Of a DNA stretch of 64,000 nucleotides, positions 1-63,433 are shown piece by piece; position 1 is the first letter of the stretch; every line of letters begins with the position of its first letter. The stretch covers positions 310,001-374,000 of the forward strand of contig QPGO01000068.1 of the NCBI GenBank assembly GCA_008632985.1, in the 5' to 3' direction. Source of the DNA: Psammoneis japonica. Its lineage: Eukaryota. The notes beneath the pieces were generated by a model, which searched no databases, had not been told where the DNA came from, and saw only the letters and a program-made list of their open reading frames with translations. A program made the position numbers and the translations under genes.

Positions 1-149
1 GCCACTCTCAATGTCCAAGTGACCCTGGCCATGGGATTTGTGCTTGTGGCTGACCTTGCCACAGCACTTGCCACAGAGGCCATTGTCCAACCACTCTCCA
101 CATCAGTGACAGTGAAGAAAATGGGCTTTGCTGTCTTGGCATCAGGTGG

Positions 150-800
150 AAGGTTGTTCTTTGTGAACTCAGGAAGCAAAAAGGCCTGGGACAGGCAGAC
201 ACATTCAAGCAGATGAGCTGACACAGATGAAGAACATCTTGAGGCAATGGCAGGCATGAGATTTTTCAACAGCACAGATCCAGGCTCTTGTGGGTTGTAG
301 ACAATTGTTCAATCTTGGGTGGGAGCATTTCCAGCAATGGACAGAAGCTGGCATCAAGCTTGCAGAGACTGTGCATCTTGCCAATCTCAGGCAGATGTCT
401 TGCGAGTTTCGTGCAGCTGACAAGACAGAGATCTGCAAGACCAGCCAAGCTGCCAATGCCAGGTGACAACATCTCAAGCAAACCACAACAGCTCACATTG
501 AGAGTGCAAAGCTGCTTGAGCATTCCAGTCTCATTGGGGACCATTGTGAGCAACTTAGAAACAAAGGGCACAGCTTCTTGAGAGCTTTGCATGCACAGAT
601 CTCAGAAGGCATGGACTTGAGCTGTTTTCAATCAAAAAGACCAAGGCAACAAAGCACCATGAGATGCTTCATGTCCAGCATCAAGGCTGTGATGTCCGCA
701 TGTGAGAAATCAAGCAAAACAATCCTGCCTTGCTCATTGATGCTGCACAGGCTTGGCCCACAAGGCAAGAGCAAGTGCGGTGCTTGGCACATCAAACAAG
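150..800 (-). pseudogene. Degenerate leucine-rich repeat (LxxLxLxxCxxLxxLPxxIG-type) gene
   Basis: Minus-strand frames give MVPNETGMLKQLCTLNVSCCGLLEMLSPGIGSLAGLADLCLVSCTKLARHLPEIGKMHSLCKLDASFCPLLEMLPPKIEQL, plus flanking RIVLLDFSHADITAL and MPQDVLHLCQLICLNVSAC. Broken by stops and frameshifts; TpA-depleted. Confidence 0.7.
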
Positions 801-1607
801 GCTTGTGTGGAGCACTGGTGCACCCATGTGTGACAGGATGAAAGGGACAACAAAGTTGTGTTGATGACAACAGCACACAGCTCAATGAACAAACATTTGT
901 GGGAGCAACGCTGCACTCATTTTGCACTGACAACTCAATGCTCAAGTTGCAGTGTGACGCAATGACAAGTGCACGCATTGTGGACAACAACAAAGTGCAT
1001 TCATTTTGCATGTTAAAGACACAACTCCGCCACTGCACACTGTGCCAAAGTGGAAACAGTGCATGCTGGCATGCACTTTGAGCAGCAGTGTGATCTGAGT
1101 TGCCCCACCAATTTTCATGCCCCCAAATGCCATTGGCGGTTTGTGGAACCCGTGCATCCAAGAGGAGGCAATGAGCCTGCCAACACAAGCCTTGACCTCC
1201 CCATTTTAGGGCCCCACCCACTGCCAAGCCTGGAGCTGCAGCTGCGCCAGCACAAAGCATCTCAAACAATGAAGATGACAGGGTTGAAGGGCAGGAGGAA
1301 AGGGTCAAAAAGGACCAGATGCCTGCATGCATGAATGGGATGCACAAAAAAGGCTCATGAGGCATGCAAGTTTCATCATGTGCTCACAGCGTTGTCTTCT
1401 TTGGACTGCGCGCATGGCAAGGCTGGCTGTCTGACAAATGCCAACATCACAAGTGCAAACCAAGGCTTTGTGACATCATTTTGTTCTTGCAATGCATGCT
1501 TTTAAGAAAATGAGATGGATGAAAAATTGCACACTGTCACCACGAAGCAACCAAGACCACAAGAAGGACATCTGGCACAGAAAAAATTCATCTCAGCATT
1601 CACAACA

Positions 1608-2735
1608 ATGACTTGCCAACTTGCTGACATGCCAACATGCTGACTTGCTGACATGCCAACACACCAACTTGCCAACAGCAATGTCGACATGCCGACACGC
1701 TGACTCACCAACACGCCAATGTGCTGACTTGCCAACTCACCAACACGCTGACATGCTGACATGCCGACTTGCTGACTCACCAACTTGCTGACTGACTGAC
1801 ACACTGACTGGCCAACTCGCCAACATGAAGACCCACTGACTTGCCGACAGGCCGACTTGCCGACATGCCGACTCACGGACTCACCCACATGCCAACATGC
1901 CGACATGCCAACACCCTGACATGCCGACTTGCTGACTCACCAACTTGCCAACTGACTGACACACTGACTGGCCAACATGCCGACATGCCAACCCACTGAC
2001 TTGCCAACAGGCCAACATGCCGACATGCCAACCCACTGACTTGCCAACAGGCCGACTTGCCAACATGCCAACTCGCGGACTTGCCGACATGCCGACATGC
2101 TGACATGCCAACTTGCTGACTCACGAACTTGCTGACTGACTGACACACCGACTGGACAACATGCCAACATGAAGACCCACTGACTTGCTGACATGCCAAC
2201 TCGTGGACTTGCCGACTTGTGGACTTGCCGACATGCCGACATGCTGACATGCCGACTTGCTGATTCACTGACTTGCTGACTGACTGACACACCAACTGGC
2301 CAACACGCCGACATGCCAACCCACTGACTTGCCAACAGGCCAACTTGCCAACATGCCGACTCACGGACTCGCCAACATGCCAACATGCCGACACGCTGAC
2401 ATGCCGACTCACTGACTTGCCAGCTGACTGACACACCGACTGGCCAACACACCAACATGCCAACCCACTGACTTGCCGACATGCCAACTCACAGACTTGC
2501 CGACATGCTGACACGCCAACATGCTGACATGCGGACTTGCTGACTCACCAACTTGCCGACTGACTGACACACCGACTGGCCGACACACAGACATGCCGAC
2601 CCACCGACTTGTTGACAGGCCGACTTGCCGACATGCCGACATGCTGACTCGCGGACTTGCCAACCCGCCGACACACCGACATGCCAACACTCCAACTCAC
2701 TGACATGCCCACATGCCGACACTCCCACACGCCAA
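1608..2735. repeat. Tandem satellite of 8-bp GCCGAC(A/T)(C/T)-like units with higher-order structure
   Basis: Units such as gccgacat, gccaacat, gctgactt. The landmark (a/g)ctgactgac recurs at 1791, 1951, 2135, 2279, 2423 and 2559; spacings of 160, 184, 144, 144 and 136 are all multiples of 8. Confidence 0.9.
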
Positions 2736-3049
2736 CGGCAATGTTGAGGAAGTGGGGTCTGCAGAGAAGGAGCTCCAAAGCAACAATTTAAGAAAAAAAG
2801 ACTTCAAAATTAAGACAAGTGACAAAAGTGAGAGCAACTTCATTGGACATGGCAAAGCAGTCACCACACCCAGGCATCAGCAGCACAAGAGTGCGTGTCT
2901 CAGTGTGCACGCCAGTGGCAAAATGAGTGCAGCACGCATGGTGATTGAGAAGATGCAGCATTCTCAACCCATTTGTTTTGAAGAAGAAAGCTCCTCTGAG
3001 CAACAAGATGACAAGGCTGCTGAAAAGTGATTGGGCTCTCTGGTTTGGG

Positions 3050-3925
3050 GATGGACTGGGGTCAGGTGGGCTGCAGCACCAGCTTGATCCTCTCCAACAA
3101 CATGGCAAGAGCAGCAACTCTCTCCATGAACCAACTCATTGGAAAGGAAGAAGCACCACCAGTTCATTGTGGCCCACAGCAGCATCTCAAGTCATGCACA
3201 TTTGTCATGTGACTGACTCCAACTGGCTCCAAATGCCAGTGGTCAGTGGACATTTTTGCTGGGTCTGCAGTGCCACACACCACATTGCTTGCAGGACATT
3301 GGTTGCCCATGGCCCAGCAGTGCATGGAGCATTGGGGCATCAATTGCAAGAAGCCCCACAAGGACCCCACATTGCCCGCGCATCTCCATTTGGGCAACTT
3401 GAACAAGATGAGACCCCACCCAGACCCCTTGAGCTGGCTCTCTTGCTCAATTGCTTGCTTTCTCAGATGCTGCCTGTGGCAATGATCTTTGAAGCCATCG
3501 CTCAACTGCTGGACATGCCTGCATCATTTTGGCTCATGCTGCCATCTCTGCTGTCATTGCAAGATGCAATCTGTGGCTGCAACAAGCTTGACTGAGGCTG
3601 AGTTTTGTGCTGCTGGCAACACTGCCAAATGGGCTCTGAGCCTTTGATCCACAGCTCAGGGAACTTGGTTTTTTTGAGCTGGTCTTGCCCTCCTGCACAT
3701 TGACAGCAAGTTGGCTGTCAAGATTGTTGATGATCGTGCCCCAACCAAATGCTCATGCCACATTGACACTCAGTGGTCTGCTCTCTGATGGGGCTGGAAG
3801 GTCACAAAACACACTGTTGCTGGGCATGTTTCTGGCATCATTGACCCAAGTGATGACCTCACCAAGGCTGTTGGGTCAATGCTGCATGCCCATCATGCCC
3901 GTCAGACATGACGGAGCATTGCCAC
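3050..3925 (+). mobile_element. Ty1/copia (CoDi-like) RT/RNase H remnant
   Basis: Plus-strand translation gives CKMQSVAATSLTEAEFCAAGNTAK and LHIDSKLAVKIVDDRAPTKCSCHIDTQ...HVSGIIDPSDDLTKAVGSMLHAHHAR. This is colinear with the RNase H end of the copia pol at 56761-57150. The 5' boundary is approximate. Confidence 0.8.
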
Positions 3926-5199
3926 TGATGCTTCTGTGCTGCCCCATTTTGTGGCATCTGTGGAACAGCCTTTTTGCATGTTTCATCTGACTCTCTCCAG
4001 AGTCACCTGGTTTGGTCTGCATCCCTGTTGGTTGATTGTCACCTTTTCCTTTGTCGCATCTGTGACCCACAAAAAAAATGTCTCTGTCAGATGTGCTGGA
4101 TCAGAAGAGGGCATCAGCTGACCAGGCATGCTGTGTGCAGTTGCACCATTTGCAGATGAGATCTCTCTTAGATCTGTTTCTCACTCTTTCTTGCTGGCAC
4201 ATGTGGCAACAGCAGCAAATTGGAAGAATGGGCTGGAGTCATTGAGGAACAAGGAGGAAGAAATGCTCTTTGTGTGGTCACTTCACATCATGGGTGCAAC
4301 ACCAGTCAGACCTTTCTGCCATGCATTTCAAAGACAATCCTGTTTGAAAGCAAACAAATGTTGTTTTGATGGAATGTGCCAGTTTGATGTTGTCGACAAA
4401 ACTGTCTGGCAAGTTGCATGCACTTCATTCTTTTTTAACAAACTTGTGAACAATGCACCAGCACAAAAGTGATTCCACACAAGAGGTGCGCCATCAGCAA
4501 ACATTTGTGCCAACCAACAATTGCACAATCTGAGGAATTGGCAGAGCAAGACCATTCTGAGGAATTGGCAGAGCAAGGCCAGTTTTAGAAACAGGAACAC
4601 TGGTTGAGCGCAAAGCCTGAGGACATTGCTGGACATCACATGAAGTGGCACAAAATGCAATCACTGAAGAGTTGGGCTCAAGAGAAAATCTTGGACCAAT
4701 GCCTGGAGAGGCACTTGTCATTGACACCCACATGCCCCAGTCTTCACACACAGCTTTGGGAGGAACAACTTTGTGCCTTCCAATGTTGCAAACAACATGC
4801 TCCATTTTGTTGGAATTGGAGATGCCATGGAAGCAAGCCGTTGGTCTTGAGATGATGTAAATCCCAAACTGTGCCAGCTTGGGATGGTTGGATGAGTGAA
4901 GCTCACCTGGGTGTGAACAGAGAAGTGCTTTGCACAAGTGAGAAATTGAAGAGAAGGGCTGCAGTGGCTTGGAGACTCCAGCAACCAAAAGGGGACTCCT
5001 CGGCAAAATGCAAAAATCACCACAATGTCTGGCAGCTGCAGTGAACAAACTGGTTGCATTTGCTCAAAGGACAAGTGAAGAACCAACTGAAGAGCAGAAC
5101 AACCACACAGTGCAGAAGACAAAATCTTGCATGGCTGCCACTGAGAGAAAACATTTGGCCAGAGCTTCTTGGGAAAGACAAGCCAGAGCTGGGAGGTGC

Positions 5200-5640
5200 C
5201 CCAGTGGCAGGCAGATCTGTGACAACAAGCATGACAGAAGTTGGCCCATCCATTGATGGAGTTGCAAACAGCAAAACACTGGGAGATGCACTCACTCTTG
5301 GATCTTCTGAAGGAGTTGATGATGCAGCTGTTGAAGGCAAGAGGGATGGCACATGACCAGGTTCAGATGACAGAGTTGAAGATGGTGCAGTCACAGGAGC
5401 TGCACTTGGCACTGTGGTTGTCGGCCCATTGGTGGGTGGATTTGTGGGAGGTGGAACAGTGACAAAAGTCAGCAATGGAGAGGGTGCTGGAGCAAGAGTG
5501 ACTTGAGGAGGGGCAGTTGTTGGCGGCAGAGCAAGAGGGGCTGGAGCAGTCACAGTTTCAAAAAATTCACAGAAATCATGCATGAAATCGAAATTGCTTG
5601 CAATGGCTCCTCTTTTAAAATGTTGGCAAAGCACCCAGGA
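5200..5640 (-). pseudogene. Remnant of a Pro/Thr/Ser-rich (mucin-like stalk) surface-protein gene
   Basis: ORF 5017..5634 contains PPTTAPPQVT...PPPTNPPTNGPTTTVPSAAPVTAPSSTLSSEPGHVPS, typical of diatom extracellular proteins. It lies in the TpA-depleted block and has no intact gene model. Confidence 0.5.
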
Positions 5641-6249
5641 CAGGGAAACCTGCTGCCCACATTGGGGCAGCCAAGGGACACAGCTTCTTCTGAGAAAGCC
5701 CTGTCATTGCTGGAAAACTTGCAGAAAAGATCTGCTTGTGACTTGAAATTCAAGACCACTCACACCACACAAATTTCTGCAAATCCATTCCTGACAAGTC
5801 ACAAACCTGTCATCAAGTGCAAAAGTTGCACCAGCATGACAGAAATTGCACACAATGTTCAAGTTGCCATTGTTCATTTCATTCTGAATGCATCAAAATC
5901 ACAACAAAAGCTTCCACTGACATTGGGACAAGCAAGAGCATGGACTTTATCCAAAGCACCTGGGTTGTCATTGATGTCAAACTGGTGTGCATTGCCAAGA
6001 GTTCCAGCATGAAAGTTGAGTCCACACACACACACACACACCACAAACACCTTGGCAATTGGTTTCTTTGGTGACTGCACCAGGGTGCACAACTCTGCAA
6101 ACAAATGAACAACTCAAAGATTGGCACTTTTTGCACTGCCAAATGGCTTTGATGTCACCCAAAATTCACCCAACTGGCATGGATTGACCACATGAATCAT
6201 GAACAGCAAAGTTGAAAGTGTCCCACCCCACAGCACAAACATCAAATGT

Positions 6250-8900
6250 CATTGTTGGCACTCTGAAGCCAGCCCAGCATGAGTTCGCGTTCATGGCATT
6301 GTTGCTCCACTTGCAGTCATTGGTGAGATTGGTGGGCTGCTTCTACGTTGTTCAGCCAGGCTCAGAGGTGTTCCAGGGGGCTGCACAACAGCTCCTCTTG
6401 GGTTCCCTCAAATGACCTCCTGTTGAATTGTGGAAGTTGTTGAGGGCCCAGAGTAAACTCACCTTGAACCTGATCACAAATGGCTTTGGTTTGTGCTTCT
6501 GACAGCATCACATTAGCCGGGTGGACTGTGCCATTGTGGTGTTCCCATTGATCCCATGAAATGTTGCAGACCTTGACACAATGAGTGATCTCACCCACCT
6601 TTGTCCTTGTTTCCCAGAGTTGCCCATTGGCAGCAGGCATGCTGTGCAAATTTCCAATCAAGTGAAAGGCAGCCTTCAATAAATCTGCCCCATCCCATCC
6701 AATCTTGGGAGTCTGCAGCACACTGAACCAGCTCATCTCATGCTTGGATGTGCTGCATTGGGGTGCCATCTTTCCACATTCCCCAAGTCTCTGCAGGATG
6801 ATCTTCACAATTTCTGGGTTGGTCCCTGTCTTGCACAGTCATTTTCAGAGTGTGTCTGGGGATTTGTGCCATTTTTCCGCCACACTCTCTGCCTGGCACT
6901 GCAACACATGGGTCAAGTCTTCCATTGGGAAGAGGCACTGGGGACAAGACTGCACCAGGGATTTGCTCCACAAGCACAGCATTTTGTCAGCCCCACACAA
7001 CCCAGATGTGTGCTTTGCTGCCCATCATGATCTTCTGGATGGCTTTAGATCTGATGTTGCTTTTGCTTGGGAATGGTCAGTGAAGAGAAATGACCCTTGT
7101 CCACCCACTGCTGTGAGAGTTTTCTGCTGTTGATGGCATGGGGCAGAGTGCATCCATTGCATTGCATGTGACTTTCCTGTTCCCAATCCAAAGTGCCCAC
7201 ATCTCTCCTTTTGCTCTTTGTTTGGTCAGGATGCCTGGGGCATTGGCCATTTGCTCTTCGGCCATGAGATCCATGTTGACATAAATCCAGAGGGGCAATC
7301 CAAGTCCTCATGAGCAACATGGTCATCTAGATGCCCTTTGACATTGACCGTGGACCATTTGGCCGGCAACTTTCTCATCCATGAGTGAGCCGCCAACAAT
7401 GCATCACACTGTTTGTGGTTTGCAGTGAGTTCACAGTCAAGGTTGTTGGAGTTCTTCAGGGCCTGATTGCTGTTGCAGCCAATGGAGATGCATCCCTGGG
7501 TTGCACCTCGGAGTTCACAGACTGCACAAATCAACACTGCAGCAGCAAGTTGTCCCACAATCTCAGCCAGCTCAGCATGTGTTCATGTCAGAAGGGTTGC
7601 CTCTTGCTGCATTCAATCCCTTGATTTTGTGTGTGTCATGGATGCCCCATGTTGTCCATGCTGATGCTCCCATGCCATTCAAGTGTGACCCATCAGATGC
7701 AGCTGTGGCTGTCCCTTCAGAAATTGCCTGAGCACAATTGATTTGCTGTTGTCATCATTTTTGAAATCTTCTGCCAACCACTTGACATCTGGATCAAGCC
7801 TGTTGATGGCCTGTTGGAGGTTCTGTGGAGGGCAAGCTTCTGTGAGCTCTGCTTCCTGTGAGAGATGCCTGTTGAAACCACTGCAGTGTCATTTCCCTAG
7901 ATCTTGGTTCTTGTGAGGTTCTCTGGGGTTTTGTCAGTTCCCCCCTCAAAGGCGACAGCATCGGGTGCTGATGGCTCTGGCAGGATGACCCAGGACAGGG
8001 GTGCAGCATTTCCATGTGCCATCTGGGAGGCGTTCACAGACCTGTTGCACTGATGCCAACAGGAAGCATGGCCATTTGCTCAACAAGTTGTCTGTCCACT
8101 TCCTCAAGGGGTTGTGGATGATGGAGTTTTGTGGGTCAACTGTGGTTTCCAAAGCTTCTCTCTGCCATCTCTGGTCATCCTGTGAAGGATTCCCTTGCAC
8201 CGGCCAATTGAAATCCATGTGGTGAGGGTCATGAGTTGGCAGTTGTCCACTCCAGTGGTTTTTCAGGACTCTTCTTCCATTGCCTGTGATGACATCAGAT
8301 GATGCACTCACCCACAGGAACAACTAACACAGGTTCACTTGGGCCAATTTTTCCCCTTTGAATCCCACTCTGTGTGGAACACTTTGATGAGAAATTTGTT
8401 GTTTTCCCAGTGCAGGAGAAGGGTGGGCATGTTTGCTTCCATCTTGATGCTGTTCTGACACAGGAACTTTCACATGTCCTTGATCCAAGAGCAAGTTGCC
8501 AGGCAATGAAATTTGCCACAGTTGTTGTCAAAAAATTTGTCTGGGCATCCCAAGCTCCAATTGATGCTGTTGAAGGTTAGCCTTGACCAGATCCCCTGCA
8601 GTCATCCCAGGCTGAGAATGTTTTGTGACTGTGCTGGGCTGGGAAGCAGCTTTGGCAGTGAAAAGGTTGTTTGTCCCAAGGAAGCTCTTGGCATGTGGGT
8701 GGCCCTCAGACCATGTCCCTGGTCATGTTCCTGCAAATTCCAGCCCCGGCCATTGTGAACTTGGCCTGGTTTTCTGAGATCATGAGTGCTGGAAGTGGGT
8801 GCTCCAGGGTCTTTGTTGCAGTGGCAGTTGGGTTGAGCCACATGTCTTGGCAGTTTGGGTGACACCTGTCCTCACTTTTTCTGACCATGCTTGAGCTGCT
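6250..8900 (-). mobile_element. Degenerate non-LTR retrotransposon (post-RT region plus RNase H domain)
   Basis: Contains KTLEHPLPALMISE...AGICRNMTRDMV (8706..8912), AISEGTATAASDGSH (about 7680-7735), and ISIGCNSNQAL...VNVKGHLDD (7226..7558). These match LINE RNase H motifs (AVSDGS, GCDN, HVKGHQDD). Many stops and frameshifts; ends approximate. Confidence 0.8.
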
Positions 8901-9949
8901 GTTTGGAGGCATTTAACCTCTGTTCTGTCATTTCTGTCTGCTGCCAGCCTGACCCCAAGTGCCCATTCAGCCTTGTCAACTCAACCCCTGTCATTTGCGT
9001 GGGTTGCCTTTGCTGTTTAAGTCCTTGATGGCAAACTCACAGTTGATCTCATCTTCCTTCATGTTGCTCCAGTTGCCTTGCTTCCGTTTGTCAAACCCCA
9101 CCAAACAACACATTGGCTCTTTTCTGGGACTGTTCCTCCACCCGGCACACAACTCTGCAAGTTTGCAGGTGGCAACGGCATTCATCTTGTCCAATGTCCT
9201 TCTCATCTGTTTTTGAAATGAACTTGATGTGACCTGGAGCCATTTCTCAGGAGCAACAAATCACATCATTGCTGGCATCATGTTCAGAGTCAACATCCAC
9301 TGCAATTGTGGGATCAACAACATGGCCTCCAGTTGCAAAGCCTCCCACTGGATGAGTTGGTGGGTCATTGTTTTGCCTCTTGCAATTGCTGCGACTGATT
9401 TCCAAGGCCTCAATTCCTTGGTGGAGTCTGCTGTGCTGCCAACAGCTCCTGGGGCAAAGGCAGCAATGCCAAGTGCCAGAGTGCACAAAACAAGAACATG
9501 GTTGAGTTCCTTGTTGTTCCTTTTTGTGTCAAACAACAAGGCCTCATGGGGCAAAGGTGGCATTGCCAAGTGCCAGAGTGCACAAAGCAAGAACATGGTT
9601 GAGTTCTTCATCATTCTTTTTTGTGTCAAACAAGTGCCATGCCACCCCCCACTTCTTTGTGCCAAACAAGTTGAGGTGTCACATTGTGCCCTGCGGTTTC
9701 TCAGAGAAATGTGCAACCTCAATCATGGACAGTGTTGACCTTGAAAGGCTGTGGCTGTTTTGTCCCCAGAGAGAGCTCACGACTTGGGTGACAACATTGC
9801 AGCACTCTGTTGGATGAATGAACAACTCATGCACTGAGCTGCTGGCTCTCATCTGAGTGGAATGTAGAAAGTCCAATGTGGAGCTCAGTGGTGAGAGAGC
9901 TCCTGCTGCCTCAATGTTTTGGTCACAAAAGGGTGCCACAGATGTGCAG

Positions 9950-10010
9950 CAACCCAACAACAACAACAAGAACAACAACAACAACAAGAACAACAACAAC
10001 AACAACAACA
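9950..10010. repeat. (CAA)n microsatellite, imperfect
   Basis: Directly visible in the sequence. Confidence 0.95.
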
Positions 10011-10902: not shown

Positions 10903-10924
10903 GACAACAACAACAACAACAATG

Positions 10925-10978
<54 letters not shown>
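10903..10978. repeat. (CAA)n microsatellite
   Basis: Directly visible; paralogue of the 9950-10010 tract. Confidence 0.95.
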
Positions 10979-35260: not shown

Positions 35261-35369
35261 TGGTGCAGCAGAAGACGACAATGGGCACAGAGCCCATGTG
35301 AGGTCATGAGTTGAGTCCATGGCATTGTCACTCCAATTGTCCATTGACAGCCACCCTTGCTCATTTTTG

Positions 35370-54359: not shown

Positions 54360-56465
54360 AGAATACGAGAGTATGTTATGATGTGGTGTTGTGTGGTTGT
54401 ACGGTGATTGGTGGATCAAGCACACAGCGGTAGTTCTTTGTAATGCTTATTGTAGTCGGGTATGATTTGCAAAACAAGCTCTGTGTTCTTGGCTATCCTT
54501 TCCGTATGATTGCGTGTTGGTGGAATACAAGACTTACGCCAGACATGTATAAGTACCCTTGTTGCGTTGCTCGAATCTGCAGCGCTATTTTGAATTTTGA
54601 TTCGAATTTGGCGTCGTCGAGAGCAACGCTAGAAACGAAAGACCGTTGTGCGCTATGTTAAATACTTGAGGGTTCAGATCCTTTTCTCTCACGTCCAACT
54701 AACCGAGTCAATGTATTACGAAAAAATGGAATCCAGAAGCTAGAGTATGCCGTGTACGGGTAGAATCTACTGTGGTTATTTCAACCTGGAAGAGGTCGTC
54801 CTGTGAACGGCACTTGTAATCTTACGAAAGTACAAAGACCAACTTTTCAAAAGAAACAGGAGTAGGCGGAATCAGAGAGTATTTCCGTACATGTTGAGTG
54901 ACTTAAAACCCTCTCAAAAAGAAGATAGGCAGGCGGGCAAATCCCTTTGAACCAGAATCCCGGACTCCTATAATCTAGAAAAGTGACGACACGGCAGAAC
55001 GAATCTAACGCTCTCAATCTTAAAAGAAACATTGACACTAAAAATCCGCATCAAGCTTGCGGCCTCGTTGAAGGATGATGTATAGCTGGGGTATCTCTAC
55101 TAGCCCTAGAGCTTGAGCTGCTGTACAGACGATGGACAGCAGAAGTAGATGAATTACTTCTGTGCAGGTGCACAAATCAAGCAATGCTTCCGATGGATTG
55201 TGCTTCTGTAAAACGTCAGTGTTGTTCTTATTGTAGAGCATTTGACACTCTATCTACCGGCAGTAGCTAGCTACAACTGCTCTAGAGCTCTACTCTCTCT
55301 ACTAGAGCAGTAATAGAGACAACATAGAGTGGCGCAGCACGCTCCTTCTTGTGCGCAGTTTCCCGACGTCACAGCTCTTCGCCTGCAATTTTTTGCCTCA
55401 GTGGCTGGAAGTGGCTCTTGCAGCTTGTTGGCTCTCATTTCTTAGTTCTCACTTGCATCTTCTGAGTGTTCCAACCATTCGGTTTTGTCATGGGAAGCAA
55501 ACAACTCTCCAGCTGGCTCTTGGGTTTTGCCTGCTCACGTGTCGCACCCACAATTCCGTGGTGACCCCCTGTCACTCCAGTTGTGTTGAGAGCCCCTGCA
55601 ACCAACATTTTTCCTGGCCAGCACAGTGAGATCTTTCGTTTGTGCATGTCAAAAGGGGGTGGGAAAATGAAAAATTGATGTTTTACAAGTCTGGATTTCT
55701 TTGCTCTGCCTTGAATTGCTTGCATTCTGTGACCATGCACCGCATGATTGTCCATGTGCAACGTGCGCACTCAGCATTTTTTAGCCTTTTCATTGCCCCA
55801 GCTCTTCTGTCACTTGTTGCTTCAGTGGCTGTTTGATGCAAGTGCTTGAGACACTGAGGTCAAAGCCAGAAGAATGAGGGGGCACTCTTGCCAACACAAA
55901 CAGCAGCCTGGTTTGTGGGGCCAGCCACACCACACTCTTCCTTGAGCTTGCATTTTGTCAACAAGACACCACACATGCAGCAGCTTGCCTCTGCTGCAAT
56001 GTTTCAAAGCAGGAGGCTGTTTTGATGACAGTTGTTTGCTGAGAATGTGACATTTTGTGAGATTGCCCAACAACTGGGAAATGCACCTTGCAATGCTGCA
56101 AAGGAACACCTGGCAAAAAGACCCCCTGTTCTGGGACAAAAAGTGGTGTGCATTTTCAAAATTTTTGTGCTCTGGCCCATGCTGCTGGCTGGTTTTAATT
56201 CGTTCAAATGAACTTCAATCACAACTTGCACACCCGCTGATGCTGGTCCCTTCACTGTTGTCAAGGTTGCTGTGGGGCCATCCATTTGCAAGTCAATGTC
56301 ATGACACCACAGGCAGCGGGGAGAGGGGCTGGGTGGAACATTTTCACAGTCCAAGCAGTCTGGGCAATGCTCTTTTTTGATTTTGGGATGCACCTTGTTG
56401 TGCCTGACAGGATGCCGAAGGTCAATGATGACAGATGCATGAAAGACTCCCCAAGCGCCAGGGAC

Positions 56466-56592
56466 TGTGATGACACGAGCACTGGCAGATGAGAAAGTGA
56501 GAGGCAGATCTCAGAGAGATCTGCTCGTCTGTCTAAATGGTCTGGTCATCATCCATGTGCAGTCTGTCCATCACATGACATGCAGACTGACA
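56466..56592 (-). repeat. Putative 3' LTR of the copia element, preceded by a polypurine tract
   Basis: On the minus strand, CAGGGGAGGG (56602-56593) is followed directly by TGTCAGTC. A candidate ...ACA end lies at 56466. The second LTR is not in the window, so the distal end is unverified. Confidence 0.6.
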
Positions 56593-56760
56593 CCCTCCCC
56601 TGATCTGCAATGTCTCAAAATAGAAGACAGTGTAGATCAAAACAAGAACAGGGATGATGCAAATGGAGCAACCAGAAGAAGGACACCAAAGGTGTCCAAG
56701 CCCAATGCGCATCAAACAACGGGGCAATGCGCAGCAGGAGAGGCTGCCATGGAAAAAATG

Positions 56761-59700
56761 TCAATGGCAGTGTCCCATCACACGTTGAGTGTGGCGAGTG
56801 TGGAGCACCCACCCAAGAGCCTTGGCAAGGTCATTGCTGGGGTTGACAATGCCAGGGATGTGTCTGGTGACAATCTTGCCCGCTTCCTTCCATTCTTGAA
56901 TCGCGAAGAACTGAACCTCAATGTGGTGCGAACGCTCAGTCGGAATCGAATGATTGATGATCTTGATGGCCGATTCGTTGTCAACATGCAAGGGGGTTGG
57001 CTTCATTTGGGAATGACCAAGGTCATGCAGCACATGGCGGAAGCAAAGAACATGCTTGGCAGTGGCACCAGCAGCATGGAATTCTGCTTCTGTAGAACTC
57101 GCAGCGGTCACCGACTGCGTCTTGCAATGAAAGGAGATGGCAGCACCAGCCAACATGCAAGCACATCCCATCATAGAATGTTGATTACGAAGATCATTTC
57201 CACACACAGCATCAAGGAAGGCAACAAGTTGATGGTCACACTCAGGAGTGGGGAATGATGGGAGAGGAGCGGGGAATGACGGGAGAGACGGATCGGGACT
57301 CAAGCATTCACACGGATGGGCAGGGAGGCTCGGGTCACGTTTAGATTTCTTGTGGTTCAATTCCCAATGTTTGGCACATCGGAGACACTTGCGTGCACCC
57401 TTGAGTGCATCGCAGTGCACTGCCGCAGGGCAAGTGGAGAACTTGGAAAGGGCAGTGATGGCATGGCCAATGTCGAGTCGACAGACAACATGTGCATGCA
57501 ACAGCTCACCAGGGAGGGTGTGGCATCCAAAACCAGCAGCTTGTTGCAGCTCCACATGTTCCGGTGTACCTTCAGCAGGACCAATGTCAGTGTAAAGATC
57601 TCGAACAGAATCCACCGGAATTGGAGTCGCCTTGAAGTCATCAAGCAGTTCTTCATCACTTGGCGCAGACCAACCGCATGAGAGGCAAACACGGTCAATG
57701 TAATTGTAGATGGCGACACCAATTGAATCATCATGCTGATGGACATCCACACCATTGAATTCCTCCAGGAGGCCAAGGTGCTTGAAAGGCGGAGCAGTTT
57801 CCGAGTCCAGTTGAAGGGCTTTGCCAATCCTGTCACAGATTGCATTGGCAATGGACTCCCCGGGGCAAGCAATGGCAAAGTCATCAACCTGTTGAAGGAG
57901 CAAAATTTTGTGTCCTTCAAATGCAGCAGAGCAGATGCATTTGTCGTGAGCAGTGTTCCGGAATAAAAGATTCACATCAGATGAGACACCATCAATGTGA
58001 TTCTCCCAGAGCATGCCGGCTTCTGGGTGTCCTTGAAGAGCATGTTGCATGGGAAGTGCCATGCTCCTGTCCAACTCCTTTCCAAAGTGAGACTCATGCC
58101 AAGTCGCATGTGCATCGTCAACAGCAACATGGACAGGATGTGACGGGCAGGGAGAATGGGCACAGGCATCGCGGGCATCACTGCCATGTGCTGGACAACC
58201 CATTGCAGCTGCCAGGGCAAAGAACATCTGTTGGATGGGTTGTTCAACACAGGAGGAGCATGTTGAACAAAGATGATGGAGAACAAATGCAGCACGAGGG
58301 GATCCGTTGCAACACTGACGAGAGCACCGCGCACTGTCATGTTTGAGGTCATGTTGCCAGTGTGGTCTCAGTGCAACTGCATCCTTTGGATGTTTGATGG
58401 GAGCACCAAACATGCCCAACTCATGAAACTGGTCAAGTTGTTTAAATTCACCCATGCGCCATTCAGGCCAAGTGTCCAATTGCTTGAGTCGATGGCGAGT
58501 GAAGGTGCCCAAGGCTTGTTCCTCTGGGGCAATTGCGCGGGAGGAGATTGCATGGACTTTGACGACACCATTGTTGTGGTCAACATGTGCAGGTGGCAGG
58601 ACGTTGTCATCATCAATGGCTTCGAAATCAGCACTGGGATGGCGCACCGCAGCAATGGCACGTGTGTCGGCCTGTGCAAGCTCCGGGACATGTTCATCAT
58701 CAGGGTCCAGGGTGGGGGAGAAGATGTCATGTTCCATCAGAGCATGTTGGAGAGCTTGAGAGTCCAAGCAACGTTCTGGCGTGAATTCAATTTCAAAATG
58801 TGTCTTGCCAGACTCACGCAACTGCTGGAAATGCTTGACAGCATCATCACGGGTAAAAACTGGTTGATGATCAATCGATGCAACACACGCGCCTTTGATC
58901 TTGTTGCGGGTTGCCTTCAAGTTCGAGAAAAGATGATCAGTGGGGGAACCACGTTTGATGTCCGAGACGAAAACACGTTGGCACAGATCATCCACAGCCA
59001 ATGAGAAGCCATGAGAGGGATCCGTGAAAGGTCCTTTCATGGCACGTGTGATGGTCTTGGCAAAAGGGTTACCATGAAAGTGAAATTCATCCACAGTGGT
59101 CTCTTCAGTGTCGGCAGGGAGGGCATCACCAGCCTGAGCACGTTGCAAATGAACAACATTCGGGGGAATAGAGTCGTGGGGTAAATCATTCATCCCCTCA
59201 TCACATCTGATGTGCTTGGCCAGCTCAACACGCGATGTCTCAGTGTCGCACCACAAAATGTTCTTGGTGGCATCCGGAAGGCATCCCAAGAAAATCCCTT
59301 TGCGTGATGCGGTCCGGAATTTTGCCGGACGGTGATTCAAAGCACGCACCCAAACGCGACAACCAAACGTGTGGAAGTTCCGAAAATCATCCTTCTGACC
59401 AGCAGCAAGTGCAATCGGAGCAGCAGTCTGCCCCCGGGATGGCATGGCATTCTTGATCCGAATGAAGTGATGGAAAGCATGGGGCCAAAACTTGATGGGT
59501 AAATCCGCACCAACAAGCATCACCTGAATGGCATTGGCAATGGTCAAATGACTCCGTTCAACTGGGCCACTCTGATTCGAAGCGTCTTTTCCAGTGGGAC
59601 GAATTGCACAATGAAAGTCATCCTCGAAGAGTCGCCGAACTTCTGGGTTCTGACATGACTCACCTCCTTGATCCACAAATGCATGTTTGTCTGGACATTT

Positions 59701-61806
59701 TGGCGAGTGCTCTTCCAGAAAGTGGCGAATCCAATTCAAAGGGGTTGCCTTGGAGACACGAGTCGCACCATGGAGATGCTTCGTTTTATGATCATAAATG
59801 GCAATCCAACAAGTCTCGCCATTCAATCCAACACAGTCCTTGGTGCGCTCCGAGTTCTTGGAGCGTAGGCCAGAGAAGGAAAAATCAATCGTAAGGCCTT
59901 GGCATGGTTGGGTGGCAGTGAGAGTGGTGTTCGGACCGGCAGGTTCCTTCGTCTGCTTGGCTCGCATGCATGTGGGACAAGTGTCGAGAGGAGAAGTTCC
60001 GTGGGCAAACTTGGGGACGCCATCAACATGTTCATGGGCATGATGAAGGCAGTGATCACTCGGATGACCAAGTCGCTGATGCCACAAAAGACGTTCCGTG
60101 TCGGCCTTGAGAGACTGGACAGGAATGTTCTTCTCAGCATGCTTCTCGAAAGGAACATCTTGACAGACACGGGGGATCAACTTGCATTCATCACGAAGAG
60201 CTTCATGTTGGTGGGTGCGACAAGTCTCAATCACACACGCAGAGACCGCTTCACACTCATTGGCAAAAGAAGGATCAGCAGTCTTGAGGCGCTCGACAGA
60301 TGCATCCAGTTCGTCGTTAGATTCCGGGAGAATGAGAGGGTGAGCAAAACATTTTCCATTGATCAATTTTCCATGAATGACAACATCCTGACTCTTGCGC
60401 AATCGGTGTCGTGCAACAAACTTGCAGGCACCAAGATCATGGAACTTGAGAATGCAATCGACATTGCAATCTGTGAAACGAGAACCATTTTGACGAAGGA
60501 GGAGTCGCTCATCGACCAACGTAGATTGGATCTGTGGGTGGCAGCATGCACGGACCTCAACATGGCCATCAGAGTTCTCTGCAGGGATGCGAAGACAGCC
60601 GAATCCAACTGGGACAGCTTGGTGGCCAAGGGCCGGGTTGACAGCAAGGGGACAGGGATGGGACGGAGTGAAGTCTTGGCAGCAATGGAGGAGGTCACGG
60701 TCGCCTGCACATGCAATGTTGGCACCTGCATCCAACTGAGCACAACGTTGATGCCACAAAAGGCGTTCCATGTCGGCCTTGAGGGATTGGACGGGAATGT
60801 TCTTCTTGGCGCACTGCTCAAATGGGACATCTTGAAATGCTCGGGGAATCAACTTCCTTTCCATGCAGAGAGCATCATTTTGGCATGCACGATGTGTTTC
60901 AATCATGTGGGCCGAGACTGCTTCACATTCATCCACAAAGGAGGGGTCACTTGCCTTGAGGCGCTCGACAGATGCATCGAGCTCATCATGGGATTCTGGG
61001 AGAATGAGTGGGTGAGTGCAACACTTGCCATTGGTCAATTTCCCATGAATGACGACATCCTGACTCTTGCGCAAATGATGCCGTGCAACAAACTTGCAAG
61101 TGCTGAGGTCATGGAACTTGAGGATGCAACCAACATTGCAATCCATGCGACGGGCACCATCCTGTTGGAGCAGCAATCGTTCATCAACCAAGGTAGATTG
61201 GAGCTGTGGGTGGCAATGCGCACAAATCTCAACATGTCCATCAGAGTTCTCCGCAGGCATGCAAAGACATCCAAAGCCAACTGGGACAGCTTCATGTCCA
61301 AGAGCTGGATCAACAGCAAGCGGGCATGGGGCAGAAGGAGCAAACGCCTGGCATCAATGTAGGAGATCACGATCTCCAGTGCAGGCAACATCAGCACCAG
61401 TGTCAAGTTGAGCACAGCGCTCATTTGGGGCAAACTTGACACCATTGACAGCGCAGGCAGTGCGGAGCAGATCTGGTGGATCCAAGTCATCATCATGCAG
61501 TGAGCCAAGCGGGGCAATGCAGACAGAATTCACTGCGGTGAAACCATCCTCAACAGCAATGTCGTCATGGGTGAGATCAACGAACTTGGCAAATTCACAT
61601 CCCTCTAAATCTTCCCTCCCCTGTTCTAAAGAGTCCAGAACAGGATCAATCTCCAATGTGCCATCAGGGAGAACAGGATCGTCATCAGGCAACTTGGTGG
61701 TGTCAGGAGAGACCTTCGAGTCGGGGGTGCAGTCCGCATCAGTCGTCGAAGAAAGAGGCAGCACAGTGGCAGATGACGAGACGGTTGGTCCCTCTTTCAC
61801 AGTCAT
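56761..61806 (-). pseudogene. copia pol (protease-integrase-RT-RNase H), open for 1499 aa but saturated with missense changes
   Basis: ORFs 56761..61260 and 61354..61806 are in the same frame, separated by a TGA. Conserved Tyr residues are replaced by Cys/His. Confidence 0.85.
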
Positions 61807-63433
61807 CCCGCTGACATTGGTCTTGTCTCAGTGGGCAGAGAATGGGCTGCATCGGAGATCCGAAACTAGCTGCGACGGCCCGACTGAAAATCTGAAGACT
61901 GGACACCAGCACTGGGTGGAGAATCAGATGGGGCTTGATGAGGCGGCAACAAACCTTGTGGTCCTTGAAATTCAGAGGCTTGCATGGCCGCTTCGCGCTT
62001 CAAAAATTGACAAAAACGCACATGGAAGCCCTCATTGTATGGGTTGTTGTTCAAGACAGGACAGTCATGGAACAAGTGCTCGTCAGAACAAACAAGGCAT
62101 GGTTTCTTGGAGGCCTCTGTGGGAGCAACCTTGAGTTTGTGTGCCAAAGCTGAGCAGACATGATGAAGGAGACGATCTTCATCTTCTGTGGAAGGTGCGT
62201 CAAGGTCATTCAATTCAGCACAGAGGGAGTCAAAGGTGTCCTCGGGGGAGTTGTCGATGTTGGTGGCTTCAGGCAGCTCGTCTGCATCCTCTGCAATGGG
62301 AGGGACATCCGGAATGGTCAAGGAATTGACATCGGCAGTGGTGCGACGCGCATCGCCTGGGTGTCGATCCCATGTGCGGCATGGATTGCAAGGAGTCGCA
62401 CGGGTTGCAAGAGATGGACTGTCCAACTGACGAAGGAAGTCAGACAGAGTCTCAACAATCTGTGCACCCGTGTGCTTCTTGAGCATGGCAGGAGACTTCC
62501 TTTCGTCCCTGGCAGCACGGGATAAGAACTTGGAGCATTTGGTGTTCTTGATAAAAACAGTCATCTCTTGAGAGTCATCCAACGTAGAGTCCGCATTAAA
62601 GATGTGAGCACGCAGCTGTAGAAAATCCTTGAAACACAAGCGACAGTCCGTCAATGACAGATTTCCTTGAATGGGGCAGGAATCTACCAAACCAGCAGCC
62701 TCGTGATTGAAAGCCGGGTGGTTCTCGCAGACAATTTGCTTGAGAGCCTTGCAGCCATTGCCATGGCATGAGGCAACAATCCGATGATGCTTGCTGTTCT
62801 TGGGGAACACATCAGACTTGGAAAGGATCTTGTGAAGGGAACTTTGTGCTTCTTTACAATGAACATACATTCGTTGGGGCAAGTCATCGTCTTTGCCATT
62901 GCCAATCTCAAAACCCTTCTCACCACCATGGTCCTTGGTGAAGCACCACAAAGGATGCACGCAGCATCCTGAGTCAAAGGAGTGACGTTGAAAATTTTGG
63001 TGCCATGCACGTGTCCCAGCGGGAGAATCATCATGGCAGATTGGAGGTTCCCTGAATGGCATCTTCTGGTCAGGGGCCGAGCTCATTGTAAACAGGGCAC
63101 CATCATTGAGAATGATGCGGTCAGACGCATCAACATGGTGGCGGAATCCATGGCCACAATGGACTGGGGAGCTCTTCAGGGTGACGGCACCATGTTCTTT
63201 GCAGTCGTAGCATGTGCAAACATCAGGAGGCAGGGTGTCAGGATTGAAGAGACATTTGAATGCTGTGGAAGATGCAGGAGTTCCAGAGGTCTTGCCAGAG
63301 GAGTCACGAGTCAACAACCGAGTCTGATTCATGGATGACGCTTCCGGTCATGGATCTCTTCTTCCGGAAGAAATGTCTGTTGAGTCTTCTAGCGACAGTA
63401 ATCGGAGTGACACACACGACCGTTAGGTCATAA

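Follow-up and report, generated by a model that had tools for sequence, protein, structure and literature searches.

The 64-kb window that constitutes our Psammoneis japonica data holds genes and five blocks of altered DNA, which as delimited comprise 26,849 nt and leave a remainder of 37,151 nt (Table 1). The organism is a diatom, and the fungal frame of reference adopted in an earlier sequence-only reading of this DNA therefore does not fit. Block 1 also includes one copy and the left part of a second copy of a tandem duplicate from the 3′ flank of the EF3 gene. Block 2 is made up of a minus-strand fragment from an FG-GAP_2 repeat gene, now decayed, with a normal gene on either side, and a domain search of block 4 recovered nothing recognisable. 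Block 5 is a full-length Ty1/Copia element of diatom type, with its coding part at 56743-63254 (-). Three of the five blocks are without an identified repeat, and remnants of cellular-type genes (FG-GAP, subtilase, LRR), in a decayed state, lie within blocks. Decay of the old blocks shows in other ways too: reading frames are broken and duplicates differ by indels.

Table 1. Coordinates of the blocks and of the features within and between them
Feature	Position	Strand	Remarks
Block 1, old, TpA- and CpG-free	1..11140	.	27 TA in 11.1 kb
LRR-like ORF in block 1	269-601	-	
8-bp satellite in block 1	1610-2736		
Copia RNase H fragment in block 1	3276-3971	+	
Tandem duplicate copy 1, ~0.9 kb	9603..10520	+	wholly within block 1, fully converted
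Tandem duplicate copy 2	10600..11476	+	left part converted, right part unconverted
Block 2, young	24620..25700	.	2 TA; CpG obs/exp about 0.5
Block 3, old	32000..36780	.	10 TA
Subtilase (Peptidase_S8) fragments in block 3	35619-35819, 35823-36080	+	colinear, one frame
Unconverted island, 349 nt, between blocks 3 and 4	36781..37129	.	26 TA, 19 CG; base-sharp edges
Block 4, old	37130..38975	.	4 TA
Block 5, young	55350..63350	-	44 TA; CpG 0.4-0.8
Copia ORF, open, 1530 codons	56761..61353	-	4 Tyr
In-frame tandem duplication, 672 nt, inside Copia ORF	60074..61419	-	

The sequence-only reading had described these blocks as sharply bounded, poor in TpA and rich in TG and CA, with normal genes, and dinucleotide counts bear this out. 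The blocks contain 87 TA (obs/exp 0.05; range 0.04-0.08), where about 1062 would be expected at the rate of the outside DNA, together with 3101 CA (1.81), 2928 TG (1.79) and 468 CG (0.28). Outside the blocks there are 1469 TA (0.59) and 2092 CG (0.97), with CA at 1.14 and TG at 1.12. Bins of 500 nt mostly hold 0-3 TA inside the blocks and 10-41 outside (one bin with 7), and the hand counts of that reading, 0 TA in 60001-60300 and 9 in 17041-17340, were exact. Block borders are sharp to about 100 nt or better; for instance, the final TA of block 3 lies at 36081 and the next 11 fall within 36785-36825. The spared zone consists of the genes plus about 200-330 nt of flanking DNA. AA does not drop in the blocks, and their GC content is the same or slightly higher. 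The obs/exp values of the four pyrimidine-purine steps sum to 3.82 outside and to 3.89 and 3.97 inside, a constancy expected from pure transitions among these steps.

The direction of change can be read from the EF3 duplicate. Spanning the EF3 3′ UTR and the final codons, the right part of copy 2 (11230-11480) escaped conversion and served as the ancestral reference, while the left part is converted up to about 11140-11220. At the 19 TA retained by copy 2, copy 1 carries TG 11 times, CA six times, another dinucleotide twice and TA never. The copies differ at 49 of 249 columns; toward the block copy, 34 of these differences are A>G or T>C and 7 are G>A or C>T.

A second comparison comes from the Copia protein. 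The peptides cited earlier as altered transposon motifs were all recovered exactly, GIFLGC, ILWCD and PLHVDN in the Copia ORF and TATAASDGSH at 7683-7712(-). Tyrosine makes up 0.3% of the ORF (4 residues), as against 2.2-5.0% in 99 of 99 homologues, while histidine reaches 7.3% and cysteine 5.1%. A set of 40 homologues gave 546 columns with at least 80% conservation, and the window Copia matches 441 of these. Only one of 21 conserved tyrosines is retained; the rest are 9 cysteines (TGY), 9 histidines (CAY) and 2 phenylalanines. Among the 105 replacements, 34 fit TA>TG/CA, 23 fit CG>TG/CA and 7 are other transitions. The ORF is still open since TA>TG/CA is unable to make a stop codon. Further substantiating this direction, the two 672-nt duplication units differ by 19 CA/TG doublets, which indicates that conversion postdates copying and affected each unit separately; CA/TG doublets also separate the window Copia from other genomic copies in sequencing run X1. 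The three independent comparisons agree, and on sequence grounds the direction is TA>TG/CA on both strands, as had been claimed.

These comparisons also bear on an origin in intrinsic composition or selection, by which the blocks would be foreign or selected against TpA and never have been TA-rich. Many viruses avoid CpG and UpA. However, a TA-bearing, host-derived paralogue adjoins its own TA-free copy, conserved tyrosine codons were replaced at functional cost, copies are separated by CA/TG doublets, and the depletion within the blocks is far below the TA avoidance of the window genes. The paralogue and protein comparisons refute this explanation, to which we assign next to no probability.

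The bases themselves appear to be real. In X1, one contig (7658 nt, word depth 60) extends from the gene side over the border at 55350 as far as 56487; it differs from the window by 7 substitutions and 4 indels, none of which restores TA. X1 is the only DNA run containing the stretch, is possibly the assembly's own sample and has no library type on record, all of which leaves some room for an artefact in which TG/CA would be a misreading of base modifications at TA and CG in heterochromatin, the actual DNA still carrying TA. The long open Copia frame, resembling that of an intact young element, would fit this too. Such a basecalling artefact is nevertheless unlikely, and its chance very slight, because exact-word contigs from a public run repeat the TA-free sequence over the block border. 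Moreover, in accurate polymerase-based reads 5mC, 6mA and 5hmU appear as C, A and T, the same signature occurs in unrelated metagenome assemblies, and the old blocks carry the broken frames and indels noted above.

An independent data set is provided by related metagenomic Copia copies, whose host would be a diatom, judging solely by the protein names of their relatives. Across 80 loci, TA obs/exp ranged from 0.09 to 0.86, with 11 below 0.40; the loss was graded between copies and even along their length. The aligned family comprised 43 copies, 9 depleted and 34 normal. Low TA was the basis on which the 9 were chosen, so the loss of TA in them is itself partly by construction; TG/CA as the product, the dominance of transitions and the TAY preference lie outside this selection effect. 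In the depleted copies, A>G affected 211/539 sites in TA and 251/3565 outside TA, and T>C 115/475 and 272/3284, respectively. The corresponding values in the normal copies were 138/1865 and 396/11915 for A>G, and 149/1557 and 483/10463 for T>C. By context, A>G reached 0.43 at TAC, 0.42 at TAT, 0.22 at TAA and 0.18 at TAG. The window survivors imply the same 5′-TAY preference, as they are mostly YTAR (39 surviving versus 270 outside the blocks, compared with 3 versus 419 for RTAY; odds ratio 20, p 1.6e-12).

This spectrum disfavours one of three chemistries proposed earlier, error-prone repair synthesis of the Pol-eta type at WA motifs, as might accompany mismatch repair where 5mC has been deaminated. 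WA is a Pol-eta hotspot, the mutated A follows T, and the heavy CpG decay in the blocks would yield T:G mismatches. Against this, AA is spared: A>G was 0.321 after T but 0.082 after A, 0.085 after C and 0.063 after G. Transversions at TA were just 0.06, AA obs/exp shows no drop within the blocks, and the metagenomic copies lose TA with little extra CpG loss. We consider this route very improbable. The other two chemistries proposed earlier were a TadA/ADAT-like deaminase and deamination of a modified adenine.

Both strands were struck about equally, again as claimed. TAY changed at 187/421 sites on the sense strand (0.444) and 52/141 on the antisense strand (0.369), and TAR at 0.203 and 0.189. 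TG and CA outcomes were about equally frequent, and a runs test for strand-coordinated TG/CA tracts detected none (z -0.8 to +2.4). This symmetry bears on RNA-level editing, in which an ADAR-like or fungal TAD2/3-like A-to-I activity would act on retrotransposon transcripts and be fixed by reverse transcription. The best-preserved block is indeed an LTR retrotransposon, and RNA editors of this type favour U before the edited A, according to a preprint (bioRxiv 10.64898/2026.01.13.699255). Yet antisense changes match sense changes after context control, Tyr>His equals Tyr>Cys, and non-retroelement DNA was converted (the EF3-flank duplicate, satellite, FG-GAP and subtilase fragments). Strand symmetry and non-retroelement targets refute RNA editing as the main cause, and we find it scarcely credible.

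The suggestion that the process was undescribed did not hold. According to a 2026 preprint (Mettrop et al., bioRxiv 10.64898/2026.01.13.699255), DNA of giant viruses and virophages integrated in the rhizarian Bigelowiella natans is hypermutated almost exclusively by A>G and T>C, at TpA alone, with TpG/CpA as the products. The preprint describes a long-term footprint in which TpA is lowered and CpA+TpG raised, an enrichment of reverse transcriptase and DDE domains among low-TpA predicted genes, de novo rates measured in mutation-accumulation lines, and a proposed ADAT2-type adenine deaminase. The diatom phenomenon belongs to this type. The two cases differ in lineage (Rhizaria there, Stramenopila here), in saturation (obs/exp 0.45 for the B. 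natans viral region, far above the diatom blocks) and in the diatom targets, namely an LTR retrotransposon, satellite and cellular-type pseudogenes with co-located CpG decay. The TAY>TAR preference and strand symmetry were measured in the diatom, de novo rates only in B. natans. Our literature search found no report of TpA hypermutation in diatoms; to judge from that search, a TpA-erasing A-to-G hypermutation has so far been reported only once before, in this unrelated alga.

Comparison with better-known systems supports the earlier statement that neither fungal RIP nor 5mC decay caused the TpA loss. As in RIP, dense transitions occur in repeated or silent DNA with sharp borders, transposons are inactivated and each copy acquires its own mutations once it has been duplicated. 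RIP in Neurospora crassa is C>T, mainly CpA>TpA, and depends on RID/DIM-2. It thus makes TpA and stop codons and lowers GC, whereas the diatom process destroys TpA, makes no stop and leaves no strand-coordinated tracts; homology dependence is unsupported at the single testable duplicate. Deamination of 5mC shares the blocks, the borders and the products TG and CA, but is incapable of removing TpA. APOBEC3 and ADAR likewise hypermutate mobile or foreign nucleic acid by deamination, but their targets are cDNA or RNA in the course of replication and a single strand bears the mark (G>A or A>G), whereas the diatom changes lie on both strands of resident chromosomal DNA, including non-retroelement DNA.

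Taken together, the evidence is probably best read as TpA-specific mutation at the DNA level, through site-by-site adenine deamination, that has reached saturation in the silent DNA of this diatom chromosome (transposon, satellite, pseudogene). Each TA was altered singly, A>G yielding TG when it fell on the top strand and CA when it fell on the bottom strand, with 5′-TAY converted first and YTAR the last to survive. A putative enzyme would deaminate adenine to hypoxanthine, and the hypoxanthine would be copied as G. TA is palindromic, and A-directed and T-directed chemistry therefore look alike in sequence. A thymine-directed process, in which silent chromatin carries a modified T at TpA (5-hydroxymethyluracil, base-J-like) that mispairs with G to give T>C, would fit all sequence evidence equally well, the TAY preference becoming RTA on the opposite strand; the 5hmU of dinoflagellates also favours TpA. 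Nonetheless, 5hmU opposite A is only weakly mutagenic, near-complete conversion favours a lesion that miscodes efficiently, as hypoxanthine does, and our analysis found no support for such a modification in diatoms. We regard it as improbable.

For adenine deamination, a TadA/ADAT2-like enzyme is a tentative candidate, proposed by analogy because its natural substrates have U before the target A, followed by C in the TadA core. The bacterial core motif is UACG, which matches 5′-TA with a 3′ pyrimidine (PMC11472039). DNA can serve as a substrate for evolved TadA and for amphioxus ADAT2, although the adenine preference of the latter in DNA is reported as GAA rather than TA (PMC10354150). Natural TadA and ADAT2-3 also target hairpin loops or single-stranded substrates, unlike the conversion here of essentially every TA in a duplex domain.

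How the targets are selected is a separate question. The sequence-only reading called the process repeat-restricted, and part of this stands: the blocks are silent and repeat-bearing, genes are spared, and the block 5 family has a depth of ~15-75x single-copy in X1. The same family depth, the tandem duplicates and satellite of block 1, and the base-sharp edges of the unconverted island, as expected if a block is one repeat unit, would suit homology-triggered, RIP-like targeting of the same TpA chemistry, perhaps in a sexual phase. But the block 1 border falls inside the duplicate, sparing the right 260-330 nt of copy 2 while the copy 1 homologue is fully converted. In addition, the first ~650 nt of block 5 (55350-56006) are TA-free at near single-copy depth (87.9 versus about 60), cellular gene fragments are affected, and the graded, even conversion of the metagenomic copies fits slow accumulation better than a burst. 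We therefore consider homology-triggered targeting rather unlikely. That repressive chromatin, in diatoms also bearing 5mC, instead sets access for the deaminase seems to us about evenly balanced between true and false; the term silenced chromatin is based only on CpG decay here and on published diatom methylomes.

CpG depletion co-located with the TpA loss was absent from the sequence-only reading. CpG obs/exp is 0.11 in the older and 0.53 in the younger blocks, and the decay shares borders with the TpA loss and is uniform across all NCGN contexts. Repressive chromatin bearing 5mC would explain this slower CpG>TpG/CpA decay. TpA loss is the faster process, given that the young block 5 Copia has lost ~95% of its tyrosine codons while its CpG is only about halved; the metagenomic Copia copies lost TA with little or no extra CpG loss. 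In terms of the genetic code, TA>TG/CA turns every tyrosine codon into one for cysteine or histidine, alters ATA, GTA, TTA and CTA codons, and erases TAA and TAG stops as well as TA-containing signals (TATA, AATAAA). As no new stop arises, dead elements keep long open frames.

Dinucleotide counts across the window confirmed that five TpA-poor stretches first picked out by a sequence-only reading (blocks 1-5, at 1-11140, 24620-25700, 32000-36780, 37130-38975 and 55350-63350) are real and extreme, and the hand counts and all four peptides quoted in that reading were exact on recount. The pooled blocks (26,849 nt) contain 87 TA (obs/exp 0.05), compared to about 1062 expected at the rate outside, and are enriched in CA (n=3101, obs/exp 1.81) and TG (n=2928, 1.79). 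Outside the blocks (37,151 nt), obs/exp was 0.59 for TA (n=1469), 0.97 for CG (n=2092), 1.14 for CA, and 1.12 for TG. Most 500-nt bins within blocks hold 0-3 TA and those outside 10-41 (one bin 7); at their edges the change is abrupt, taking about 100 nt or less, and the genes are normal. The same blocks are depleted in CpG (n=468, obs/exp 0.28), on which the sequence-only reading had not remarked. CpG obs/exp was ~0.11 in blocks 1, 3, and 4 (hereafter old blocks) and ~0.53 in block 2, block 5, and the satellite part of block 1. The obs/exp values of all four pyrimidine-purine steps sum to 3.82 outside and to 3.89 and 3.97 inside, as predicted for pure transitions of TA and CG to TG/CA. CpG loss was uniform across all NCGN contexts, which fits ordinary decay of methylated CpG to TpG/CpA regardless of flanking bases. 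Deamination of 5mC accounts for the CpG loss only and was rejected as the cause of TpA loss. TpA conversion outpaces CpG decay.

The host is a diatom, and the fungal frame of reference adopted earlier was wrong. The elongation factor 3 (EF3) ORF, assigned by Pfam, is 82-88% identical to the 120 matches listed, and the named ones among those are diatoms (Thalassiosira exigua, Mediolabrus comicus, Thalassiosira sp., and Odontella aurita). The remaining genes of the window are ordinary nuclear genes, the short introns of which are skipped by contigs of the public run X2. X2 thus behaves like RNA; it leaves 54673-64000 uncovered, which we did not take as evidence on expression. The further run X3 yielded nothing on the window stretch.

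Features of the window, with strand and position relative to the TpA-poor blocks
Feature	Coordinates	Strand	Location	Remarks
8-bp satellite	1610-2736		block 1	
Copia RNase H fragment	3276-3971		block 1	
LRR-like ORF			block 1	
Tandem duplicate of EF3 3' flank, ~0.9 kb	copy 1, 9603-10520; copy 2, 10600-11476		mostly within block 1	
EF3 ORF	11456-14407	-	outside blocks	
39-bp tandem repeat, 2.5 copies	14410-14507		outside blocks	just upstream of EF3 ORF
Decayed FG-GAP repeat gene fragment			block 2	
Subtilase fragments			block 3	same frame
TA-bearing island, 349 nt	36781-37129		between blocks 3 and 4	
Flavin amine oxidase gene	42575-46758	-	outside blocks	
B56-kinase ORF	49030-52641	+	outside blocks	
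Ty1/Copia element, full-length	56743-63254	-	block 5	homology to diatom Copia polyproteins
Copia ORF	56761-61353	-	block 5	
672-nt (224-codon) tandem duplication	60074-61419	-	block 5	in frame, N-terminal (gag-side) part of Copia ORF

The Copia element in block 5 is 27-56% identical to its relatives, which are diatom polyproteins (named ones from Nitzschia, Fistulifera, and Cylindrotheca). Many copies of the family exist in the genome: contigs lying on the element from X1, a public DNA sequencing run, sum to a word depth of 870-4600, compared to ~60 over the genes. Self-BLAST of the window returned three repeat pairs only and no LTR pair for the element. A Pfam scan of 95 block ORFs of at least 90 aa and 117 ORFs of 55-89 aa matched LRR, FG-GAP_2, and Peptidase_S8; four other matches (E 0.004-0.009) were all under their gathering scores and were discounted. 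Sensitive tblastn of 99 Copia proteins against the window gave noise apart from the RNase H fragment and block 5, with no support for a lead from the peptide TATAASDGSH at 7683-7712. Between the Pfam scan of block ORFs and this tblastn search, no recognisable domain emerged in the rest of blocks 1, 3, and 4. A search among longer proteins returned no homologue of the block 2 FG-GAP fragment. The satellite comprises ~110-140 copies of the 8-bp unit GACATGCC and its variants, in which higher-order periodicities of 16, 40, 80, and 144 are seen; TA is absent from it, yet its CpG obs/exp is 0.5-0.65. Since pieces of LRR, FG-GAP, subtilase, and EF3-flank sequence lie within blocks, the target is silent DNA of several kinds, transposons and more. 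The earlier description as repeat-restricted therefore holds for the repeated block 5 family but not strictly, as gene fragments and other silent DNA are also converted.

The direction of change was derived from three independent comparisons. The tandem duplicate of the EF3 3' flank straddles the block edge, and its two copies were compared over 249 aligned columns in which copy 2 lies outside the block (11230-11480, EF3 3' UTR and last codons). At the 19 TA of copy 2, copy 1 reads TG 11 times, CA six times, another dinucleotide twice, and never TA. Their 49 differences comprise 34 A>G/T>C changes towards the block copy, seven the opposite way, and eight transversions. Secondly, the Copia ORF contains Tyr at only 4 of 1530 residues (0.3%), compared to 2.2-5.0% in 99/99 homologues, with His at 7.3% and Cys at 5.1%. 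The window retains 441 of the 546 columns at which at least 80% of 40 Copia homologues agree in the alignment, and 1 of 21 conserved tyrosines, the others being replaced by TGY Cys (9), CAY His (9), and Phe (2). The 105 replacements divide into 34 fitting TA>TG/CA, 23 fitting CG>TG/CA, seven other transitions, 22 transversions, and 19 needing several steps; the 34 TA-type changes compare with four other AT>GC changes. Intrinsic composition or selection, which would leave the blocks TA-poor from the outset or keep them so, is excluded by the TA-bearing paralogue and by the loss of conserved tyrosines.

Thirdly, the two units of the 672-nt duplication within the Copia ORF (76% identical, gapless) differ by 19 CA/TG doublets, 13 CA/CG, and seven CG/TG. 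Of the differences that separate the window from the other Copia copies in X1, the 40 best supported include three CA>TG doublets; at a fourth adjacent pair (62033-62034) the next base is also altered (TCAT>TTGA). At some sites TA in other copies stands opposite TG/CA in the window, and at others the reverse is seen. Together, the doublets and the mixed TA states between copies indicate that the copies had already separated when conversion took place, and that descent from a master element without TA does not account for it. The CpG decay of the Copia ORF seems to differ between strands (coding strand CG>CA 19 vs CG>TG 4), conserved Arg having changed 11 times to His/Gln and once to Cys. CpG losses private to the window relative to the X1 copies show no such bias, and the asymmetry may therefore predate insertion.

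Partly converted relatives were found in metagenomes. A scan with a single Copia protein found no relative; when the element was aligned with 29 homologues and the alignment used as the query, 80 Copia loci were returned. Judging by what related proteins are called, the contigs are probably of diatom origin. The loci range continuously in TA obs/exp from 0.09 to 0.86, with 11 below 0.40 in which CA/TG is raised in step. These 11 (L027, L065, L026, L068, L010, L023, L067, L030, L016, L040, and L014; 0.09-0.38) have almost normal CpG and mostly come from one group of mat metagenomes, in which close relatives have values of 0.55-0.76. As a set, they amount to a ready series of copies that are converted in part. 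Along any one copy the depletion is even, and its extent is graded from one copy to the next, which fits gradual accumulation.

One family among the loci (n=43, ~78-95% nucleotide identity) was used for a substitution spectrum, polarised by the majority of 34 normal copies, with normal copies scored leave-one-out. In nine depleted and 34 normal copies, respectively, A>G in TA occurred at 211/539 and 138/1865 sites and T>C in TA at 115/475 and 149/1557, compared to 251/3565 and 396/11915 (A>G) and 272/3284 and 483/10463 (T>C) outside TA; as the nine were selected by low TA, their TA loss is partly by construction, and the TG/CA product, the transition character, and the 3' context rule are free of that selection. 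CpG transitions in the depleted copies (C>T 0.175, G>A 0.142) were just slightly above those in normal copies (0.129 and 0.128).

The metagenomic copies also revealed the sequence rules of the process. The rate of A>G was 0.321 after T, 0.082 after A, 0.085 after C, and 0.063 after G, so that the 5' T is strict, and transversions at TA amounted to 0.06. Error-prone synthesis of the Pol-eta type at WA motifs, a chemistry proposed earlier, is expected to produce hotspots at both AA and TA along with a share of transversions and is disfavoured, given that AA is not elevated and transversions are few. The 3' base had an approximately two-fold effect, with C and T alike (TAC 0.43, TAT 0.42, TAA 0.22, TAG 0.18). 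The window bears out this rule independently: the TA surviving in the blocks, compared to TA outside, numbered 39/270 for YTAR, 32/373 for RTAR, 13/407 for YTAY, and 3/419 for RTAY (YTAR vs RTAY, odds ratio 20, p 1.6e-12). In the three old blocks, YTAR made up 27 of 41 surviving TA and RTAY none.

With context controlled, both strands are used alike: TAY was converted at 187/421 sense and 52/141 antisense sites and TAR at 24/118 and 63/334. Editing of RNA before reverse transcription, by an ADAR-type or fungal TAD-type enzyme, would leave A>G on the transcript strand of retroelements alone and is excluded by these similar rates, by the balance of Tyr>Cys (9) and Tyr>His (9), and by the conversion of DNA other than the retroelement. 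In the blocks, TG and CA are equally common and unclustered (runs test z -0.8 to +2.4), which indicates that sites are converted singly, without strand-coordinated tracts. The process is a TpA-specific transition that prefers TAY and acts on both strands, site by site. Among surviving TA on the plus strand of block 5, RTAR outnumbers YTAY by 24 to 6 (p 0.0014), meaning that conversion has gone less far at sites needing the A of the minus (coding) strand; a strand effect tied to replication or transcription may be the cause.

A basecalling artefact is unlikely. One X1 contig (7658 nt, word depth 60) starts in the genes at 48832, crosses the 55350 border, and reaches 56487; it differs from the window by seven substitutions and four indels, none of which restores a TA, and contigs of the gene region show no differences. 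This check is limited in that X1, for which no library type is recorded, may be the sample behind the window assembly. Accurate polymerase-based reads do not miscall modified bases. In addition, the same signature occurs in unrelated metagenome assemblies.

Fungal repeat-induced point mutation (RIP) changes C to T, mainly CpA to TpA, and thereby raises TpA and AT content. It is triggered by duplication, mutates both partners over the duplicated length, and needs a RID-type cytosine methyltransferase and a premeiotic stage. The direction here is opposite, with TpA lost and GC at 0.49-0.51 in blocks vs 0.48 outside, and RIP proper, which creates TpA, is excluded. A targeting rule of the RIP kind, in which the repeat unit itself is recognised, could still apply to a different chemistry; we consider it unlikely, even with block 5 repeated, block edges base-sharp, and an unconverted island separating blocks 3 and 4. 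At the only duplicate open to this test, copy 1 is converted throughout, and copy 2 has its right-hand 260-330 nt unconverted. The spared part belongs to the end, transcribed, of a gene that is highly conserved, and this speaks for a boundary set by chromatin or transcription rather than for sensing of homology; the TA-free stretch 55350-56006, which is at near single-copy depth, does likewise. The island has 26 TA and 19 CpG, both normal, and base-sharp edges; tRNA and Rfam scans of the whole window gave no match, and the island has no clear ORF. Candidate origins are intergenic DNA that was there before insertions on either side, an insertion that arrived later, or an element that is protected.

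The process works on resident chromosomal DNA within sharply bounded silent blocks. Access would be set by repressive chromatin, which in diatoms bears 5mC on transposons; this is suggested by published diatom methylomes (5mC on transposons, as cited in PMC12344493) together with the co-located CpG decay. The chemistry is probably enzymatic deamination of adenine to hypoxanthine, which would be read as G at the next replication. As TA is self-complementary, the sequence is blind to whether adenine or thymine is attacked, and we regard a thymine-directed chemistry as very improbable. The agent of the favoured adenine deamination may be TadA/ADAT2-like, given that the motif resembles natural TadA/ADAT2 substrates, a likeness of motif only. 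To our knowledge, U33 precedes A34 in all tRNA substrates of these enzymes. The core motif of bacterial TadA is UACG (PMC11472039), and amphioxus ADAT2 is able to deaminate DNA, with GAA preferred for adenine (PMC10354150). The TadA core has U before and C after the target A; here the 5' T is strict and a 3' pyrimidine is preferred about two-fold, C and T alike. Within the 64-kb window, no candidate deaminase gene with an HxE-PCxxC motif was found.

By the genetic code, TpA conversion removes every Tyr codon, alters ATA, GTA, TTA, and CTA codons, and erases TAA/TAG stops and TA-containing signals, and no stop codon can be created. Loss of two of the three stop codons with none made explains the 1530-codon open frame of a dead Copia element and the excess of long ORFs in blocks (4.32/kb vs 2.58/kb outside for ORFs of at least 90 codons in all six frames), many of them long chance ORFs. 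Gene finders run on the blocks would call tyrosine-free orphan 'genes', and in diatom genomes converted DNA will mislead the prediction of genes, the counting of orphan genes, and the dating of transposons.

Contrary to what had been proposed, the phenomenon is not undescribed. In a 2026 preprint on Bigelowiella natans (bioRxiv 10.64898/2026.01.13.699255), two integrated viral regions gained 231 single-nucleotide mutations, of which 230 are A>G/T>C and all 230 lie on TpA, at ~6e-7 per site per generation, about 1000-fold above background, and in some lines only. According to the same preprint, predicted genes with low TpA are enriched in reverse transcriptase and DDE domains, and an ADAT2 homologue is proposed as the agent. 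Both cases share near-exclusive A>G/T>C at TpA, giving TpG/CpA, and the same kind of target, represented here by five sharp blocks, one with a Copia element and the others with gene fragments and unassigned DNA. In contrast to B. natans, the host here is a diatom, conversion is saturated, CpG decay is co-located, and the process has hit an LTR retrotransposon, a satellite, and pseudogenes of cellular type; new elements here are the strand symmetry and the rule on the 3' context. The graded metagenomic copies are compatible with a gradual process. Our literature search returned no account of diatom repeats losing TpA or undergoing A>G hypermutation and no case of this TpA hypermutation besides B. 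natans, and the passages checked in the SPLASH paper and the viral-methylation paper (PMC12344493) contain nothing bearing on TpA. The earlier interpretation was right in substance, once corrected for novelty, strict repeat restriction, and the fungal comparison.

We tentatively propose, as a possibility we still hold to be rather doubtful, that diatoms and chlorarachniophytes have in common an old, enzyme-driven DNA adenine-deamination defence. It would be a natural adenine base editor guided by repressive chromatin, clearing silenced transposons, endogenous viruses, and dead genes of every TpA, TAY first; as an A-to-G counterpart of RIP, it might be widespread in SAR and overlooked since ORFs stay open. 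The window would represent a second, phylogenetically distant case of TpA-specific A:T>G:C hypermutation of silent or invading DNA, and would lift the phenomenon from a curiosity of one species to a candidate principle of genome defence, widespread among marine algae. The present case makes the phenomenon cross-lineage and gives it a sequence rule. Three features offer concrete handles for hunting the enzyme: the saturation of the blocks, the gradation among metagenomic copies, and the preference for TAY over TAR. A natural DNA adenine deaminase would be of interest to both genome-defence biology and base-editing technology.

Two genes outside the blocks deserve mention. The flavin amine oxidase gene carries PHD-like zinc fingers in an architecture like that of the histone demethylase LSD1, and X2 contigs skip 45322-45401 and 46759-46929, which are intron-like. 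The B56-kinase ORF is a single frame of 1203 codons with an unusual fusion of a PP2A B56 regulatory-subunit domain and a protein kinase domain, and one X2 contig covers it end to end.
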